A DNA stretch of 64,000 bases, taken from an archaeon. Lineage in GTDB: Archaea > Nanobdellota > Nanobdellia > Woesearchaeales > GW2011-AR9. The position numbers were made by a program, and so were the translations under genes. The notes under the pieces are model-generated. The model saw only the letters and a program-made list of their open reading frames with translations. It was not told the DNA's origin and did no database searches. The stretch is taken from contig NZCK01000007.1 in the NCBI GenBank assembly GCA_002688265.1, positions 104,739 through 168,738 of the forward strand, given 5' to 3'. Shown piece after piece: positions 1,413-48,523 of this stretch. Each line of letters begins with the position of its first letter. Within the stretch, counting starts at the first letter, position 1.

Positions 1413-1528
1413 TGGCCCCGCCGTGATTTGAACACGGGACCACCCGATTTCAGTCACTAACGTTCCGAACAGTTTTCGGTGCCGCCAATGTATCAGTCGG
1501 GCACTCTACCAGACTAAGCCACGGGGCC
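1413..1528 (-). tRNA. tRNA-Ile(GAU) with a ~42-nt intron at the canonical 37/38 position
   Basis: The reverse complement reads GGCCCCG-UG-GCUU..GAGU-G-CCCGA-CUGAUA[intron]A-UCGGG-UGGUC-CCGUG-UUCAAAU-CACGG-CGGGGCC-A. The cloverleaf is complete once 42 nt are removed. The intron contains a CCGAA/UUCGG hairpin. Confidence 0.75.
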
Positions 1529-4714: not shown

Positions 4715-4723
4715 TTTTATTTA

Positions 4724-4839
4724 CCTCCAAATGGTTACGCGTAATCTCGAGCAAGCTCTCCTGACTTTGTTCCTCACGTCACAAAGCATTTGATACGCAA
4801 CGTGAGGCATGTGCTCCTTTTAGTCGCGTAGCCCCACAC
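4724..4839 (-). repeat. L1: G+C-rich structured leader repeat abutting the ndk start (copy 1 of 2)
   Basis: About 98% identical to 5802..5916 (2 substitutions and 2 small indels). On the minus strand it ends in GGAGG just upstream of the ndk ATG. Predicted helices are GGCUACGCG/CGCGUAACC, GAGCA/UGCUC and CCUCACGU/ACGUGAGG. Confidence 0.8.
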
Positions 4840-4910
4840 CACCACATTGTTTATTGTTTGTTTTTATAGTTGATTTAAAAAAAAAAATAATATTAATTTT
4901 AAAAAAAAAA

Positions 4911-5462: not shown

Positions 5463-5792
5463 CTACTCTGCTTTAGATGCTTCGTTAATTTCTTTAATGA
5501 GTGCTTTTGCATCTCCTTCTTTGGTTACTGCAACTGCTGCACAACCAACTGATAAACCTACTGCTGCGCCCAGAGAATCTTTTTGAGGGATCTCTACACA
5601 AACAATTCCTTTTTCTTTAGCTAAAAGAGGTAAGTGCATTACAATTTCTTTTGGTGATACATCACCTGCGAATGCAACTAGTTTTGCAGTTCCACGTTCT
5701 AACGCTTTAGTTGCTTCATTACTTCCTTTACAAATTTTTCCGGTGCTTCGAGCAATTTCAATTGCTTCTAAGACTTTTGCTTCATCAGCCAT
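5463..5792 (-). CDS. rpl7ae: 50S ribosomal protein L7Ae (K-turn binding protein)
   Basis: Motifs [18 protein letters not shown] and [26 protein letters not shown]. Confidence 0.9.
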
Positions 5793-5801
5793 ATTACATT
5801 T

Positions 5802-5916
5802 CCTCCCAAATGGTTACGCGTAATCTCGAGCAAGCTCTCCTGACTTTGTTCCTCACGTCACAAAGCATTTGATACGCAATGTGCGGCATGTGCTCCTTTT
5901 AGTCGCGTAGCCACAC
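5802..5916 (-). repeat. L2: G+C-rich structured leader repeat abutting the rpl7ae start (copy 2 of 2)
   Basis: Near-identical to 4724..4839. On the minus strand it ends GGGAGGAAAUGUAAUAUG, where the final AUG is the L7Ae start codon. Confidence 0.8.
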
Positions 5917-6117
5917 TAAACCATTCATCATTGAAAATTGCACTTTTTTTTGCTTAGAAGTTGAAAACAGAATTTCAACCTCGTTGCAATGCAACTCATT
6001 GGTTCTTATTTGGCTTTTGCTGTGAGTTCTTTATAAATGTTTGGTAGGTTGTGAGCTGCGTTCCTAACTACAGTTCCAGAAGATTCTTAAACGATTTTTG
6101 TAGTGAAGTTGTTTGGT

Positions 6118-7961: not shown

Positions 7962-9143
7962 TTAACCTAAAATATTCTGTTCTCTTAGAAATTCCCCTAG
8001 TGTAATTTGATTATTCTTCCGATGAATAACCTGAGCTTTGATTTGTAAATCATTACAGAAATTCTTAATTTTATCTAAGACAGCTTGAAGTTTTTTTAGA
8101 TCTTTCTTCTCTTGGGTGTGAGAATAAACTTTTTTCTCAAGCATTAGCCCTATTTTCTCTTGATAGATTTCTGCGTTGGCAGCCATACTTTGAAAAGTAG
8201 GATGGTTAAACCCAAACCGTTCCATGAACTCTGACAAATAAGTTTCTCTTTGCTCTTTTGGAGGATCAAAAATTATCTCAAAGAACTTATCCGCTAACCC
8301 TTCCACCCTACGGAATAAAGATTGTTCATGATCTTTTTGACCAGCTCCAATCTTTTCAGCTAGCGCAGTAAATAATCTTGCCCAACCAAGATAATTATTT
8401 TGAGTAGCTTTTTGTTTTAACCGCCATTTCTCCTTTGGTGTTAAAAAATGAGATTTTTCAATAAAGGTAATTGTACTAGAAAATTCTGTTCCTTCAAACC
8501 AACCCCTGCCACCACCAGTAGTTACAGGATAACCTTTATTTTTTAGACGCTTACTAACAGCAGAAAGAAGAGTTTCTTCTTTTGGATAAGGAATAACCTT
8601 TGCTCTTCCAGACAAAGCTTCAAACTCTTGGTTTTTTGAGAAATATTCTTCTTCAGGAACTAAAATTTCAGCAGTTTTTGGAAGAGACAATTGTCCAATG
8701 ATCCAAGTGTCAACAGGGTTTAAACTAACTATTCTTTTTTTCATATCAATAAAAGGAACCAAAATAGCGTATTTACAACTCCATCTAAAAAACTTCCCAG
8801 CATTAACAACCCCTTTAACGGCATAATTTAAAGTGAAATGAACTGTCATTCGAGGATATTTAAGTTTAGAATCTTCAATTATTGCTTGCGCAGAAGAACT
8901 ATTAATGTTAAATAAATAATGGCCTGTCGGTTTGATTACTCCTCTTTTAGGAAAAGTGTTTGTTGAATGAATGGCCATTAGCATCCGATCATCCAAATTC
9001 TCAATGAAATATTCTAACATCGCAGCCTGATGTTTCTCTGCTTGCACTTCTTCAGATATTGCTTTTCTTCGTATTAACTCCTGCTGCTCTTCATGTTTAG
9101 CTAGATTGAAGAATTCTCTCATCTCTTTTCTGGTTAGAGTCAT
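7962..9143 (-). CDS. hypothetical protein (393 aa)
   Basis: Long clean ORF with no motif I recognise. Confidence 0.5.
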   Translation of the reverse strand: MTLTRKEMREFFNLAKHEEQQELIRRKAISEEVQAEKHQAAMLEYFIENLDDRMLMAIHSTNTFPKRGVIKPTGHYLFNINSSSAQAIIEDSKLKYPRMTVHFTLNYAVKGVVNAGKFFRWSCKYAILVPFIDMKKRIVSLNPVDTWIIGQLSLPKTAEILVPEEEYFSKNQEFEALSGRAKVIPYPKEETLLSAVSKRLKNKGYPVTTGGGRGWFEGTEFSSTITFIEKSHFLTPKEKWRLKQKATQNNYLGWARLFTALAEKIGAGQKDHEQSLFRRVEGLADKFFEIIFDPPKEQRETYLSEFMERFGFNHPTFQSMAANAEIYQEKIGLMLEKKVYSHTQEKKDLKKLQAVLDKIKNFCNDLQIKAQVIHRKNNQITLGEFLREQNILG

Positions 9144-11270: not shown

Positions 11271-11425
11271 GGTTAGGTGAGGGCGAACGCGCGGCCCTAC
11301 GCTAAAGCAGATAATAAAACTTTGATTTCGACCTGAGCCACACAAAGTTTGGCGAAGTTGAGAAGTGGAACTTAAGCCCGGCCGCGTTCCGAGGAGCACG
11401 TAAGTGCAACGATGCCTCACCTAAC
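11271..11425 (+). rRNA. putative divergent 5S rRNA (expanded beta domain, truncated gamma domain)
   Basis: Terminal helix GGTTAGGTGAGG/CCTCACCTAAC and helix II CGCGGCC/GGCCGCG. The segment GGAACTTAAGCCCGGCCGCGTTCCGAGGAGCAC resembles the canonical 5S stretch GGAAGUUAAGCCC..GCG.UCC as I recall it. The island is about 35 nt longer than a normal 5S. Confidence 0.5.
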
Positions 11426-28191: not shown

Positions 28192-28246
28192 GTAATATTG
28201 GTTAAGGAGAATTTGTTAATAAAGGTTTGGGGAAAATTTAAAATTT

Positions 28247-28412
28247 GTTTATTACGGCTTCGAAATTCTTTGAATTTCTCGGAACACTGCCAACTCACAC
28301 TTCACTAGAAGAATCTGACAGTCGGCCACCCTGTAAGGGACTTCCCCCGGCCTCCTTGAAAAGAGGATAATATTAGTGCTCGTTATTGGCAGTGTGTTCG
28401 CCCGTAATAAAC
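28247..28412 (+). ncRNA. X1: candidate structured ncRNA (unknown family; paralogue of X2)
   Basis: G+C-rich island with nested perfect helices (GTTTATTACGG/CCGTAATAAAC; GAACACTGCCAA/TTGGCAGtgTGTTC) and three hairpins. It shares the core ACTAGAAG..ACCC(T)GTA(A)GGG..CCCCCG with 48362..48523. The strand is tentative. Confidence 0.5.
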
Positions 28413-28449
28413 AAATAGAATAAATTTGAAATTAAAAAATAATAAAAAA

Positions 28450-34247: not shown

Positions 34248-34474
34248 TGGAGCCAGCACTGTGGTCGCCCCCTTGCCGAAATATCTAATCCAAAGAAGTG
34301 ATCTTTCAGGAGCACCTTTCCGGTGCAAAGAAAGCATAGCTTTCTTGCACAAGAAATCTTTGATTTCTTTGTGCCAGCAATCTTTGATTGCTATGCATTA
34401 TACTTTGTAACAAGAAGCAAAATCTGCGCTAACTTAGATGAAAGGGCACAGCTTTGGCCATCAGTAAGCTGGCT
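34248..34474 (+). ncRNA. X3: candidate structured ncRNA next to Pop5 (a very divergent RNase P RNA, or a member of the X family)
   Basis: Closing helix AGCCAGC/GCTGGCT and several long hairpins. The 3' segment TTAGATGAAAGGGCACAGCTTTGGCCATCAGTAAGCTGGCT is reminiscent of the RNase P RNA 3' end (..AGAUGAAUG..ACAGAA..GGCUUA..), but I find no GGAAAGUCC-type CR-I. It shares motifs with X1. The strand is tentative. Confidence 0.45.
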
Positions 34475-39279: not shown

Positions 39280-40461
39280 ATGGCAAAAGATGATGATAAG
39301 AATAAACCTAAATCAATTCTTGATAGAATAAAGATTCCTGGAACAGGTTTTAGTCCAGAATGGTTTAGAATTTTAAATATTGCACATGCGTTAACACCAG
39401 GAATGAGTTCAATAAATAGTGGGCACAGTGACCAAGATCAAGTTGGTGATGGTAAAGAGCCACAATATGGATTGGGCGATGGAACCAAAAAATATGAAGG
39501 TATGTTTCTTTCACAAAAATCGGTTGCAGAACCTGCTTGGAGTGATTTTGGAGGACCAATTAGAGATCACGAAGGTCGAATTTATGAGAACGAATTGCCT
39601 TTGAGTGCAGATGTTATGGAAGCTTTTGAAAGAGCAAGAATATTACAAGAACTGGGAGCTTTACAAGGAGAATTAGAACCAAACTATAGTGAAAGTAAAT
39701 TTGTTGATCCTATGATTGGTTTTGAAGATCCAAAACAGAGATGGAGAGAAGAACCAGAAGAAAAAGGGGACTTGAAATTATTATTAATTAAAAAACCAGA
39801 TAGAGAAAATTTTTCTTTTCCAATTATAAAAGATTTGTTAGGAAATCCTAACATAATCAATGAGAAAATGACTCACAAGATTCTTCCATCAGAAGAAGGA
39901 TTTAGAGATAAACGACCCTTAGGAGGTATTCCAAGTATTGAAAAACATGTGTTTGGAACAAATCTTGCTCCAACTAAATACGAATTTAAAGTAAGACCTG
40001 CTGATGCTCCTGAAGATGCACCTTATGATATAGCAGTTGTAGAACTAGCAAATGATCAAGGAAGTTATTTTTCTGGAAAATTGCCCATTAATCAACATAA
40101 AGCTCAAAAAATTTTAGAAAGATTAGGATTTGATGTTCTAGAAGAAGATAATCCAACCGATTATTTAGGAAGAAATACAAGTATAAGGCAAGAATCAATG
40201 ATTAATATTGTAAGAAATCCTGATGCAGAAAAAAGTTACTTCTTAAGAGAAAGAGTTAATGAAGAATCAGTTTCTGTGGATGAATTGAAACTTAAAAAAC
40301 TAGACACAGAATTATATGGTCCAACAGTAGATTTTGTAGATATTCCAAGAGAAGTTGGAAGCGATGAAGCTAACGTTGTTTATATTAGGGAATTATTTGT
40401 AACTGAAGCAATTCAACGCTCATATTCTGATTTTGAAATAACTATTCCAAAAAAATTCTGA
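39280..40461 (+). CDS. hypothetical protein (393 aa)
   Basis: ORF only. Confidence 0.5.
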   Translation: MAKDDDKNKPKSILDRIKIPGTGFSPEWFRILNIAHALTPGMSSINSGHSDQDQVGDGKEPQYGLGDGTKKYEGMFLSQKSVAEPAWSDFGGPIRDHEGRIYENELPLSADVMEAFERARILQELGALQGELEPNYSESKFVDPMIGFEDPKQRWREEPEEKGDLKLLLIKKPDRENFSFPIIKDLLGNPNIINEKMTHKILPSEEGFRDKRPLGGIPSIEKHVFGTNLAPTKYEFKVRPADAPEDAPYDIAVVELANDQGSYFSGKLPINQHKAQKILERLGFDVLEEDNPTDYLGRNTSIRQESMINIVRNPDAEKSYFLRERVNEESVSVDELKLKKLDTELYGPTVDFVDIPREVGSDEANVVYIRELFVTEAIQRSYSDFEITIPKKF

Positions 40462-40533: not shown

Positions 40534-40680
40534 GCAAAGTCTTAGGCGACTGCCAGGCTGGACCACTACATTTTGCTTCACAGCGATTTTGTTTCTTGCT
40601 AAGGCAAAACAAAATGTTCGCAAAAAATCGCAGTTATTTCCAACACTCCAGCAAAGAGGCAAGCGCGCCTGTGACTTTGC
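40534..40680 (+). ncRNA. Y1: candidate structured ncRNA (homologue of Y2)
   Basis: Closing helices GCAAAGTC/GACTTTGC and AGGCG/CGCCT. It shares with 46191..46316 the blocks GGCG.CTG..CAGGCT..CCACT, ATTTTGCTTC and GTTATTT.CA..CCAGCAA.G.GG..AGCGCGCC, in the same order. The strand is tentative. Confidence 0.5.
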
Positions 40681-40763
40681 TGTTTAGAATTATTGTCTCA
40701 CCCACTTTAACCACCTAAAAATAGTTAGCGATGTTTAAAAACTAGAAAAGATGTATTTTATAG

Positions 40764-42110
40764 GTGGTAGAAGCAGAGAAAGTAGACCTATTTAGAATTG
40801 AAGGAGTTACAAAAGTCTACGGACAACAATTCATTTTCAAAAATATTAGTTTTAACATCAAATCAGGAGAAATTCTAGGAATTGTTGGAAAAAGTGGATC
40901 TGGAAAAACAACATTTCTAAACATGCTCGTAGGACTTACTAACCCAGATAAAGGAAAGGTGCTTTATCGAAATATCCACCTCATTAACAAAGACGATGAT
41001 GATGCTTACAGACCAGTGGTCAGCAATAACAAAGAGTTTAAAGAAATGTACAGCTTTGCTTCACAAAAACCTTCTTTCTATCCAAACTTAACCGCAATTG
41101 AAAATCTAAGATATTTTGGATCACTTTACAACATCCAAAAAAAATCTTTAGAACACAATGCTAACAGCCTATTAGAATTAGTAGATCTTACTTCAGCTAA
41201 AGATTTGATTGCAGCTAGAATGTCAGGAGGAATGCAGAGAAGATTAGATGTTGCTTGTTCATTAATCCATGATCCAACTGTTCTAATTTTAGATGAGCCA
41301 ACCTCAGATTTGGATTTGGTTTTAAGTAACAAAATATGGGATATCCTAAGAACTATTAATCAAAAAGGTACCACTATTATCATTGTAAGCCACAACATTG
41401 CTGAACTTGAACATCTTTGTAACAGGCTAATTATTCTTAAGGATGCAAAAGTCGCTGCAATTGGAAGTCCGGCAGAGATAAAAAGCAAACACTTAGTTGA
41501 AGAAAGTATTTACATTCATTCTAAACCAGGAAATTACAAAAAAGTAATGAGTAAATTAGGAAAGAAAGTTCTAAAGAATGTGGTTAATTGGCAAATAAAT
41601 GAACCTACACTAGTGGTTGATGCTACCAATACAAGCGATGTTATCAAAGAATTGATGAAGGTTTTAGAAAAAGAGAAAGAGAAAATTATTGAAATCGAAT
41701 TACGTAAACCAAGTTTAGATAGAATTTTTGTGCAAATCGAAGAAAATCAATCCAAGACCTACTTGAAAAAGAGTGTAACAAAGAAAAAGAAAACAGTAGC
41801 TAAGAAGAAGAAGAAGAAGAAAGTTGCAAAACTAAAATCTGTTAAAAAGAAAACATCTAAGAAAAAGATAGTTAAGAATAAAACAATAAAAAAGGAAGAT
41901 GTGAAGAAAAAAGCCCTGAAAGAGACTGTAATAAAAGAGAATGAAGAAATTAAGGAAGATAAAGTTGATAAAATTGAAAAAGAATTGCCACCTAAAGTAA
42001 TAAATAAAGAAGAAAAAACCACAGAATCTGTAGAGGCAGCAGTAGAACAAAAACCAGATATTGATTATTTTCTTAGCACAGATATAAATAAAGAAGGTGA
42101 TCAGAAATGA
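40764..42110 (+). CDS. ABC transporter ATP-binding protein with a ~120-aa lysine-rich C-terminal tail
   Basis: Walker A GKSGSGKTT, signature MSGGMQRR, Walker B LILDEPTSDLD. The tail contains KKKKTVAKKKKKKKVAKLKSVKKK... Confidence 0.88.
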   Translation: MVEAEKVDLFRIEGVTKVYGQQFIFKNISFNIKSGEILGIVGKSGSGKTTFLNMLVGLTNPDKGKVLYRNIHLINKDDDDAYRPVVSNNKEFKEMYSFASQKPSFYPNLTAIENLRYFGSLYNIQKKSLEHNANSLLELVDLTSAKDLIAARMSGGMQRRLDVACSLIHDPTVLILDEPTSDLDLVLSNKIWDILRTINQKGTTIIIVSHNIAELEHLCNRLIILKDAKVAAIGSPAEIKSKHLVEESIYIHSKPGNYKKVMSKLGKKVLKNVVNWQINEPTLVVDATNTSDVIKELMKVLEKEKEKIIEIELRKPSLDRIFVQIEENQSKTYLKKSVTKKKKTVAKKKKKKKVAKLKSVKKKTSKKKIVKNKTIKKEDVKKKALKETVIKENEEIKEDKVDKIEKELPPKVINKEEKTTESVEAAVEQKPDIDYFLSTDINKEGDQK

Positions 42111-46124: not shown

Positions 46125-46190
46125 GTTTCTTTATGGAAGAGAAGTTAGATATAATGTTTTTGGTGATTTTGAATGTTTTGTTTTTCTTTT

Positions 46191-46316
46191 TTGGCGCTGG
46201 TCAGGCTTAATCCACTCCAAACCAGTTCGCCTTGATTTTGCTTCTTGTTCCAAAGCAAAATACTCCTGGTTAATCAAAGTTATTTTCACTTGCCAGCAAG
46301 TGGACCAGCGCGCCAA
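46191..46316 (+). ncRNA. Y2: candidate structured ncRNA (homologue of Y1)
   Basis: Closing helix TTGGCGC-TGGTC/GACCA-gc-GCGCCAA; inner helices AACCAG/CTGGTT, ATTTTGCTT/AAGCAAAAT and CACTTGC/GCAAGTG. Block-wise similarity to 40534..40680. The strand is tentative. Confidence 0.5.
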
Positions 46317-46337
46317 TACATGAAACTTTTTAGAAAC

Positions 46338-48361: not shown

Positions 48362-48523
48362 GAGTAGAAGAAGATCTCACCTGTGGCTCGTTCGGGGCCG
48401 GACAAAATGCTTAATAGTTAACTAGAAGGTGCTGTGACCCGTAGGGTGCGACCCCCGCAACATACTCAAAGAAATTTGTGAAGGCATTTTGAGAATTGGC
48501 CCCCTCAACATCTTTTTCTACTC
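48362..48523 (+). ncRNA. X2: candidate structured ncRNA (paralogue of X1)
   Basis: 14-bp closing helix GAGTAGAAGAAGAT/ATCTTTTTCTACTC with one G:T pair that is a wobble only on the plus strand. Nested helices GGGGCC/GGCCCC and CAAAATGC/GCATTTTG. The core ACTAGAAG..ACCCGTAGGGT..CCCCCG is shared with X1. TTTATAAT lies about 26 nt upstream. Confidence 0.5.

Follow-up and report, generated by a model that had tools for sequence, protein, structure and literature searches.

A multicopy family of structured intergenic RNA elements in a marine DPANN archaeon, most likely an offshoot of 5S rRNA-like three-way-junction RNAs

Genomic setting and flanking signals

The 64-kb window, by which we mean the whole stretch of DNA that was analyzed, is part of a 209-kb TARA Oceans scaffold (G+C content, 35%). 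Its gene content is archaeal and includes a CCA-adding enzyme, the GTPase NOG1, Pop5, a proteasome alpha subunit, and an intron-bearing tRNA. The nearest named NOG1 homologues belong to Nanoarchaeota and Woesearchaeota (about 50 to 53% identity), with a small clade at 76 to 83%, and we treat the host as a marine DPANN archaeon (Nanoarchaeota/Woesearchaeota-like). Intron-bearing tRNA genes, with introns of about 20 to 45 nt, were seen in the window and at three other loci (Table 1); the one in the window escaped ARAGORN run in bacterial mode.

The window carries two complete copies of a structured element, Y1 and Y2, both intergenic, together with a partial relative, Z, and two larger elements with a three-way junction. 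A further complete copy, Y4, lies on the same scaffold, and another, Y3, on a contig of a relative. Y1 and Z are antisense to both of their neighbors, and Y4 follows a divergent gene. Nine of the 11 members of the extended family (five junction elements, Y2, Y3, Y4, and a copy in contig L036) are found shortly upstream of a co-oriented gene, the gap to the start codon being about 42 to 77 nt with the exception of Y3, which lies about 500 nt upstream of a 389-aa gene. The five members examined that have a co-oriented upstream neighbor start 16 to 39 nt past its stop codon. The downstream genes are unrelated to one another (UMPH-1, rpiB, PTH2, an RNase HII-like protein, NUDIX, and a methyltransferase). 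Furthermore, a TATA box stands between Y2 or Y4 and the downstream gene, at about -30 relative to the start codon, and these two elements are therefore outside the downstream mRNA. A preliminary description of this DNA had proposed that the orientation of the elements is independent of their neighbors and had argued against a simple UTR element. The antisense position of Y1 bears out the former, and together with the intervening TATA boxes and the unrelated downstream genes it supports the latter.

Table 1. Positions of the elements, their helices, and neighboring features (window numbering unless a locus is given)
Feature	Coordinates	Strand	Description
Y1	40534..40680	(-)	Complete element, 147 nt; rod-like, having an outer helix plus an arm that resembles helix II-III
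Y2	46190..46318	(-)	Complete element, 129 nt; Y1-type fold without outer helix
Y1 helix 5	40571..40625	(-)	UUUUGC (40620-25) with GCAAAA (40571-76); encloses terminal hairpin 40580-40617
Y2 helices	h1, 46311-15/46192-96; h2, 46303-07/46198-202; h4, 46275-80/46214-19	(-)	
Y2 helices, inner	h5, 46266-71/46220-25; terminal hairpin, 46252-63/46229-44	(-)	
TTCTAAA box	40683..40689	(-)	2-4 nt upstream of Y1, sense strand
TTCTAAAAA box	46327..46335	(-)	Upstream of Y2, sense strand; directly past the stop codon of a 304-aa gene
Y3	L045 4930-5052		Copy in the contig of a relative
Z	34250..34474	(+)	225-nt structured island; Y-like inner module at 34380-34449
W11k	11271..11425	(+)	5S-like RNA with a complete three-way junction, made of helix I, an expanded helix II-III arm, and a short gamma hairpin
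W28k	28244..28415	(-)	Three-way-junction member; motifs GGGCGAAC, GUUCCGAG, and CGAAGCC; different variable arm
L010el	L010 1451-1616		Further junction element
L032el	L032 9510-9679		Further junction element
L040el	L040 109-260		Further junction element
Extra hairpin	L010 1617-1672		About 55 nt, directly after L010el
Methyltransferase-like ORF	L032 9536-10714		As listed; real start probably 9749
393-aa ORFs	7962-9143; 39280-40461	(-); (+)	
ABC-transporter upstream stretch	40705-40770; L007 11165-11230		Strongly conserved, upstream of the ATPase gene
X pair	4722-4845; 5800-5920	(-)	Two near-identical G+C-rich structured islands
NOG1-exchanger island	48365-48515		G+C-rich structured island between the NOG1 and Na+/H+ exchanger genes
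Intron-bearing tRNA genes	1413-1528 (-); L007 7366-7458; L008 11622-11712; L010 5153-5246		

The sequence TTCTA occurs at most 20 nt upstream (sense strand) of 7 of 10 members, the background being about 6 to 9% per 30-nt stretch. The TTCTA(AA) box lies too near the first helix for an ordinary TATA box, and no consistent promoter or transcription start and no consistent oligo-T terminator were found on either strand. At the orthologous site in L007, which is element-free, the TTCTAAAAA box is also present; the element is likewise absent from the syntenic site in L006. A further outer helix formed by the flanks was considered and dropped, as the flanks pair in some copies only. Flanking target-site duplications were not found around the copies, nor conserved terminal repeats, the outer helices being different in sequence between copies or missing. 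The scanned neighboring ORFs gave no match to a transposase family and the gene tables name no transposase.

Two other features lie close to Y elements. The conserved stretch upstream of the ABC-transporter ATPase gene contains an inverted repeat, ACCACCUA...UAGGUGGU, around a TTTAAAAA box, the repeat being retained in the relative with changes on both sides. The window also holds two 393-aa ORFs, of which the one at 39280-40461 had no Pfam match and the other is listed without a Pfam family in the L049 gene table; homologues of similar length lie near Y-type elements in L045 and L008.

Homology, fold, and copies of the Y elements

Local alignment of Y1 and Y2 gave a score of 32.5, compared to 10.3 ± 1.8 (maximum, 18.5) for 2,000 dinucleotide shuffles (z = 12.4). 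The best other site in the window, on both strands, scored 19.5 for Y1 and 25.5 for Y2, the latter site being Z. Y1 and Y2 are homologous, as the preliminary description had stated, and are paralogous copies whose similarity is far past chance; the strings and coordinates that the description gave were found in the sequence as written. Both closing helices that it assigned to Y1 could be read from the sequence, the outer one formed by GCAAAGTC (40534-40541) and GACTTTGC (40673-40680), which in the minus-strand reading, taken directly from the sequence, is GCAAAGUC (40673-40680) with GACUUUGC (40534-40541), and the inner one by AGGCG (40544-40548) and CGCCT (40667-40671). The outer helix is indeed extra to Y1, Y2 having none, and TGCC/GGCA of Y1 is the counterpart of TGGTC/GACCA of Y2.

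Two details of the earlier comparison had to be revised. The 10-mer ATTTTGCTTC is present in both elements (40570-79 in Y1 and 46235-44 in Y2) and had been taken as an identical, homologous middle block. Both sequence and structure alignments place each copy opposite another sequence, the Y2 copy opposite Y1 40587-96 and the Y1 copy opposite AAACCAGTTC of Y2. Because the shared 10-mer is not homologous between the copies, the insertion of about 25 nt that had been ascribed to Y1 disappears: the cores measure 131 nt (Y1) and 129 nt (Y2) with 5 gap positions in the alignment, and the extra part of Y1 is the outer helix only.

We built a covariance model from Y1 and Y2 read on the minus strand (R2) and a four-seed Y model (R3); E values from all covariance models built here are rough, as calibration was shortened. 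Both models match Y1 at 40542-40673(-) and Y2 at full model length. R2 found Y4 about 19 kb outside the window, past its start, where the copy is flanked by an arginase gene and rpiB (81.6 bits; E = 2e-16). It also found Y3 (39.5 bits; E = 8e-7) on a JGI contig from a relative with 77% identity in NOG1. The counterpart of the Y1 outer helix in Y3 is GUGCCAUU/AAUGGCAC, and Y3 has a neighborhood like that of Y1 (SPOUT-methyltransferase/390-aa-gene). The family thus comprises at least three full copies on this scaffold plus one in a related genome, rather than the two members first described, within a scope of about 85 kb of genome and a few related contigs. Z is related to Y in part (nhmmer E = 4e-5; z = 7.5 to 8.5 with Y2; R3, 17.3 bits, E = 0.034).

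Searches with Rfam 15 returned no match for Y1 or Y2 at the gathering score or at E ≤ 10, and over the element regions and related loci they returned tRNAs and noise only at the same thresholds. The family is absent from Rfam. In the genome contig collection, a protein-based scan revealed no relative, and a pattern for the Y 3' block gave 11 matches, all bacterial and about as many as expected by chance. No Y was detected by nhmmer at the syntenic loci of relatives. Y is a multicopy family seen here in one marine DPANN clade only, and since about 42 kb from more distant relatives contained no family member, it may be confined to that clade. Readings as C/D-box, H/ACA, k-turn, or hammerhead RNA, and as tRNA-like, SRP, RNase P, or integron attC elements, were discarded by eye, the defining boxes or layouts being absent.

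On the minus strand, Y1 is predicted to fold at -54.8 kcal/mol (z = -4.3 versus shuffles) and Y2 at -43.6 kcal/mol (z = -3.6). Y3 and Y4 retain every helix of the Y-type model (h1, h2, h4, h5, and the terminal hairpin), and the four copies are 50 to 73% identical in sequence. Across them, 97.2% of the 141 cells in 37 pairs are standard pairs, and both sides have changed in 22 of the 37, in an alignment that was fitted to the covariance model; none of 500 shuffles attained these values, and sliding the partners by 1 to 3 columns lowered pairing to 35 to 42%. In helix 5, all six pairs are exchanged between UUUUGC/GCAAAA in Y1 and AACCAG/CUGGUU in Y2 with pairing retained, as had been noted more generally for the positions where the two differ. 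The compensatory changes in the four copies argue for selection on the Y fold. No open frame is conserved among the copies, most frames hold stops, and the indels are not multiples of three. Taken as a whole, Y is almost certainly a real structured-RNA family, and the covariation anticipated in the preliminary description is present.

The earlier reading had used the plus strand. Y1 and Y2 fold better than shuffles on either strand (z = -3.0 to -4.3), the minus-strand folds being about 7 kcal/mol more stable. The Y helices contain 11 G·U cells and no A·C cell when read on the minus strand, a count somewhat biased by the structure having been predicted on that strand. Because of this asymmetry, and because the homology runs that way, the window minus strand is most likely the sense strand of Y1 and Y2.

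Other structured islands were seen in the same window. Z has a very stable fold (z = -5.2), with several hairpins carrying CUUUGAU loops and no Rfam match, and its two neighbors are the Pop5/Rpp14 and proteasome alpha genes. Of the X pair, one island is, on the minus strand, directly upstream of the L7Ae gene (~5463-5792) and the other is between the L24e and NDK genes; X1(-) aligned locally with Y2(-) at z = 4.3, and the X island may be an L7Ae-related leader. The island between NOG1 and the exchanger gene showed no significant similarity to the Y or junction families, and in relatives this spacer is 55 to 106 nt long or absent.

Three-way-junction RNAs and their likeness to 5S rRNA

A scan of G+C-rich intergenic islands identified elements that have part of their sequence in common with Y, oriented oppositely in the window. 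This junction family consists of five distinct elements (W11k, W28k, L010el, L032el, and L040el), and W28k has a near-identical copy in the TARA contig L036. Their common plan is P1 - GGGCGAAC - P2 - variable arm - P2' - (G)UUCCGAG - short hairpin - CGAAG - P1'. In four of them, 88% of the cells pair and both sides have changed in 19 of 36 pairs; none of 500 shuffles attained these values, and slid partners paired at 33 to 43%. A covariance model seeded with W11k (R1) found the non-seed L010el with an E value of 6e-13. L010el is flanked by UMPH-1 and by the orthologue of the 304-aa gene; this is the syntenic site of Y2, and the orientation is identical. Scanning metagenomes with the junction pattern gave 21 matches, of which 5 were in low-GC archaeal-like contigs and the others in random GC-rich bacterial DNA, while a full-text literature search for the junction motifs returned only unrelated papers.

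Two observations concern the surroundings of these elements. L010el is followed directly by an extra hairpin, ahead of the UMPH-1 promoter. In L032, the listed methyltransferase-like ORF begins at an ATG inside the 5S-like element, and gene callers may therefore hide such RNAs in over-extended ORFs.

The Y elements lack the junction motifs GGGCGAAC, GUUCCGAG, and CGAAGCC. With filters off, the top non-seed match of R1 in the window was Y2(-), with 9.0 bits and an E value of 0.92 that is not significant alone; the match spans model positions 17-132, exactly the helix-II-closed arm (P2 to P2'). Reciprocally, the three best non-seed matches of R2 and R3 in about 195 kb, both strands, were L040el (23 bits; E = 6e-3 with R2 and 7e-4 with R3), Z (17 bits), and W11k (11282-11391, full model length; 16 bits; E = 0.07 to 0.18), the next best reaching 12 bits. 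Pairwise comparisons of Y with the junction RNAs gave z values of 2.3 to 3.3, in this orientation only. In the junction RNAs, the counterpart of the outer GGCG/CGCC of Y is GGCGAA.../...GUUCC, so that Y resembles a P2 arm on which the junction has closed. W11k and its close relative L040el thus appear to be the nearest full-length relatives of Y1 and Y2, and Y is probably related to the 5S-like junction family. Most likely, Y is not the isolated new family that had been described but a reduced offshoot of a 5S-rRNA-like three-way-junction family.

The 5S query was the Haloarcula marismortui sequence, which was 99% correct against the plasmid collection. W11k aligned with it at a score of 23 (z = 9.4; 0 of 1,000 shuffles), the best in the window and followed by 13.5. 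The aligned part is 5S nt 48-98, from helix III' to helix IV, and 40 of its 50 nt are identical. L032el and L040el reached z values of 4.4 and 4.0, and direct similarity to the Haloarcula 5S was not significant for W28k, L010el, Y1 (z = 0.9), or Y2 (z = 1.2), although 5S has the conserved loop C, helix III', loop B, helix II', and loop A sequence CGAAC ... GGAAGUUAAGCC ... GCGUUCC where Y2 has GGCGAAC...GGAUUAAGCCUGACCAGCGCC. An nhmmer profile of the junction RNAs had three true 5S genes as its top three matches (E = 0.005 to 0.011), on the correct strand and in the homologous region, at two haloarchaeal loci. The order of the three arms is also that of 5S rRNA. All five junction RNAs have the three-way junction of helix I, beta arm, and gamma arm; Y1 and Y2 are single rods without the third arm, and Y2 also lacks helix I. 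RF00001 matched none of Y1, Y2, W11k, W28k, or the related loci at the gathering score or at E ≤ 10, and R1 did not recover the haloarchaeal 5S genes. That the junction RNAs are divergent relatives of 5S rRNA is supported, if less firmly than the homology within each family, and Y1 and Y2 would be tied to 5S by chain only, via the junction RNAs.

Interpretation and comparison with known systems

We propose that Y1 and Y2 are helix II-III "mini-5S" paralogues without a gamma arm, i.e., structured RNA genes of about 130 nt on the minus strand, a reading to which we give an even chance. Y would have arisen by reduction from the three-way-junction RNAs that these genomes carry, a derivation that is supported but on weaker grounds. 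The elements would keep the arm composed of helix II, loop B, and helix III, which an additional helix and hairpin in loop C would have enlarged, and Y1 and Y3 would retain a helix-I-like outer stem; the gamma arm (helices IV/V) would have been lost and the loop-A residues closed into the GGCG/CGCC helix. In 5S rRNA, uL18 and uL5 normally bind to the helix II-III arm. The Y elements would be made as stable small RNAs and might act through this part of 5S, serving as decoys, as partners in storage or assembly, or as a scaffold for a separate RNP, rather than as a cis-acting UTR switch; by analogy with 5S, such a mode of action through the uL18/uL5-binding arm is conceivable, if rather doubtful. 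More broadly, the clade could have turned 5S rRNA into a small gene family, with at least five members in about 85 kb, that combines divergent full-length 5S-like RNAs, having a stump-like gamma arm and an enlarged beta arm, with a conserved two-domain "mini-5S" class of the Y type; we put this forward tentatively.

Several other explanations have to be weighed against the mini-5S reading. Y could belong to a new structured small-RNA family unrelated to 5S, with partners of its own for Y1 and Y2, the likeness of the larger relatives being convergence or chance. RF00001 was negative throughout, R1 misses true 5S genes, Y1 and Y2 have direct z values of about 1, and the junction strands (GCGAAC, UUCCGAG, CGAAG, and tandem G·A) are unlike the canonical loop A and helix V, all of which would fit. 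We nevertheless regard this as unlikely, given that W11k is the top match of the window to the Haloarcula 5S, that the reciprocal profile finds three real 5S genes before anything else, and that the RNAs share the arm order and place GGAAnUUAAGCC-helix-GCGUUCCG identically. Decay is a second route to the same appearance: the elements might descend from 5S-like genes that, having lost the gamma arm, became pseudogenes with no function. They do lack domains that a ribosomal 5S requires, the syntenic sites in L007 and L006 are empty, and supernumerary degenerate 5S copies are known in plastids (PMC4267664). Neutral decay at such divergence would erase helices, and we therefore disfavor such relics, to the point of finding them improbable: four copies that are 50 to 73% identical, one of them from another genome, share the same truncated architecture, with 97% of cells paired and 22 double changes. 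Since the fold is under selection across paralogues and two genomes, Y is better understood as a functional RNA.

The position of 9 of the 11 members shortly upstream of a co-oriented gene, and of five examined members just past a co-oriented stop codon, would suit a cis-acting mRNA module, whether a 3'-UTR stabilizer or processing signal, an insulator between co-directional genes, or a leader or riboswitch. The antisense copies Y1 and Z, Y4 after its divergent gene, the promoters intervening downstream of Y2 and Y4, and the lack of any functional relation among the downstream genes make this quite unlikely, and we do not read Y as a UTR switch because of the antisense copies and the intervening promoters. 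Very unlikely, in our estimate, is an RNA made from the plus strand. An oligo-T run (TTTTT) lies 3' of Y2 in that direction, a T-rich TTTAGAA lies 3' of most copies, and these folds, too, are better than shuffles; in this reading, however, the 11 G·U pairs become A·C mismatches, helix 4 is lost, and the similarity to the junction RNAs, and via them to the 5S sense strand, exists for the minus strand only. Least probable of all, and in our view remote, is a nonautonomous mobile element (MITE- or PATE-like) inserting by TTCTA(AA) and folding as single-stranded DNA or RNA. Copies are dispersed, their presence varies among relatives, the TTCTA box adjoins 7 of 10, and the element-free site in L007 still has TTTTTCTAAAA. 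Against this, no target-site duplication was seen, the scanned neighboring ORFs and the gene tables offered no transposase, an ortholog-like copy persists across species, and the copies are far from near-identical. The terminal helices are wholly different between copies and are therefore not transposase-recognized inverted repeats; because they vary freely and divergence is high, we do not consider Y a transposon.

5S rRNA is normally single, highly conserved, and easily recognized, and the standard 5S model fails on every copy here. For Nanobdellota, RF00001 has been reported to find 5S in 203 of 208 complete genomes and to miss it in 3; the undetected 5S in those few genomes could share the same cause. 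In the clade studied here, 5S appears to have diversified into several paralogues, including a shortened form with a fold selected across genomes. Should expression be borne out, this would be one of the rare instances in which a ribosomal RNA has yielded a new small-RNA class in a prokaryote, and it would offer a route to how reduced DPANN ribosomes build their central protuberance. Should the gene-family reading be true, the central-protuberance RNAs of the ribosome might be interchangeable or unusual, or a new RNP might have been built on the uL18/uL5-binding arm. The models R1, R2, and R3 can be used for annotating such genomes.

Among known systems, Y resembles MITEs and REP/ERIC/Correia-like elements in being multicopy and intergenic with long hairpins. 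Unlike them, it has neither conserved terminal repeats nor target duplications, its divergence is much higher, and it shows compensatory changes and conserved single-stranded motifs.

The likeness to 5S rRNA (RF00001) lies in the closing helix I, the helix II-III arm, and the second arm after a 2-nt joiner of W11k, L040el, and L032el, and in the GGAAnUUAAGCC-helix II'-GCGUUCCGnGGAG stretch of W11k, which is 80% identical to the Haloarcula 5S over 50 nt; Y keeps the helix II/loop B/helix III part. In contrast to 5S, Y1 and Y2 lack the gamma arm (helices IV/V and loops D/E) and Y2 lacks helix I, loop C contains an additional helix and hairpin, each genome has several divergent copies, and the Rfam model scores none of the Y or junction RNAs. 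Stepanov and Fox reportedly described in 2021 that 5S genes with insertions of 13 to 109 nt coexist with normal copies in Halobacteriales, such as Halococcus morrhuae, and in some bacteria; these expanded 5S rRNAs are said to keep the canonical core and to be detected by standard models. We know of no version without the gamma arm in that work, which to our knowledge does not cover DPANN archaea.

Deviant organelle 5S rRNAs provide a precedent for each oddity of the Y and junction RNAs (PMC4267664). In the plastid 5S of Bigelowiella, the gamma domain is shortened and has neither loop E nor helix IV; in that of gnetophytes, the base of loop C carries an additional stem-loop of about 25 nt; and supernumerary, less stable organelle copies are regarded as pseudogenes (Valach et al. 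2014, PMC4267664). Those genes, however, are organellar, with one functional copy per genome and three domains retained, whereas Y occurs in a free archaeal genome as several structurally conserved two-domain copies.
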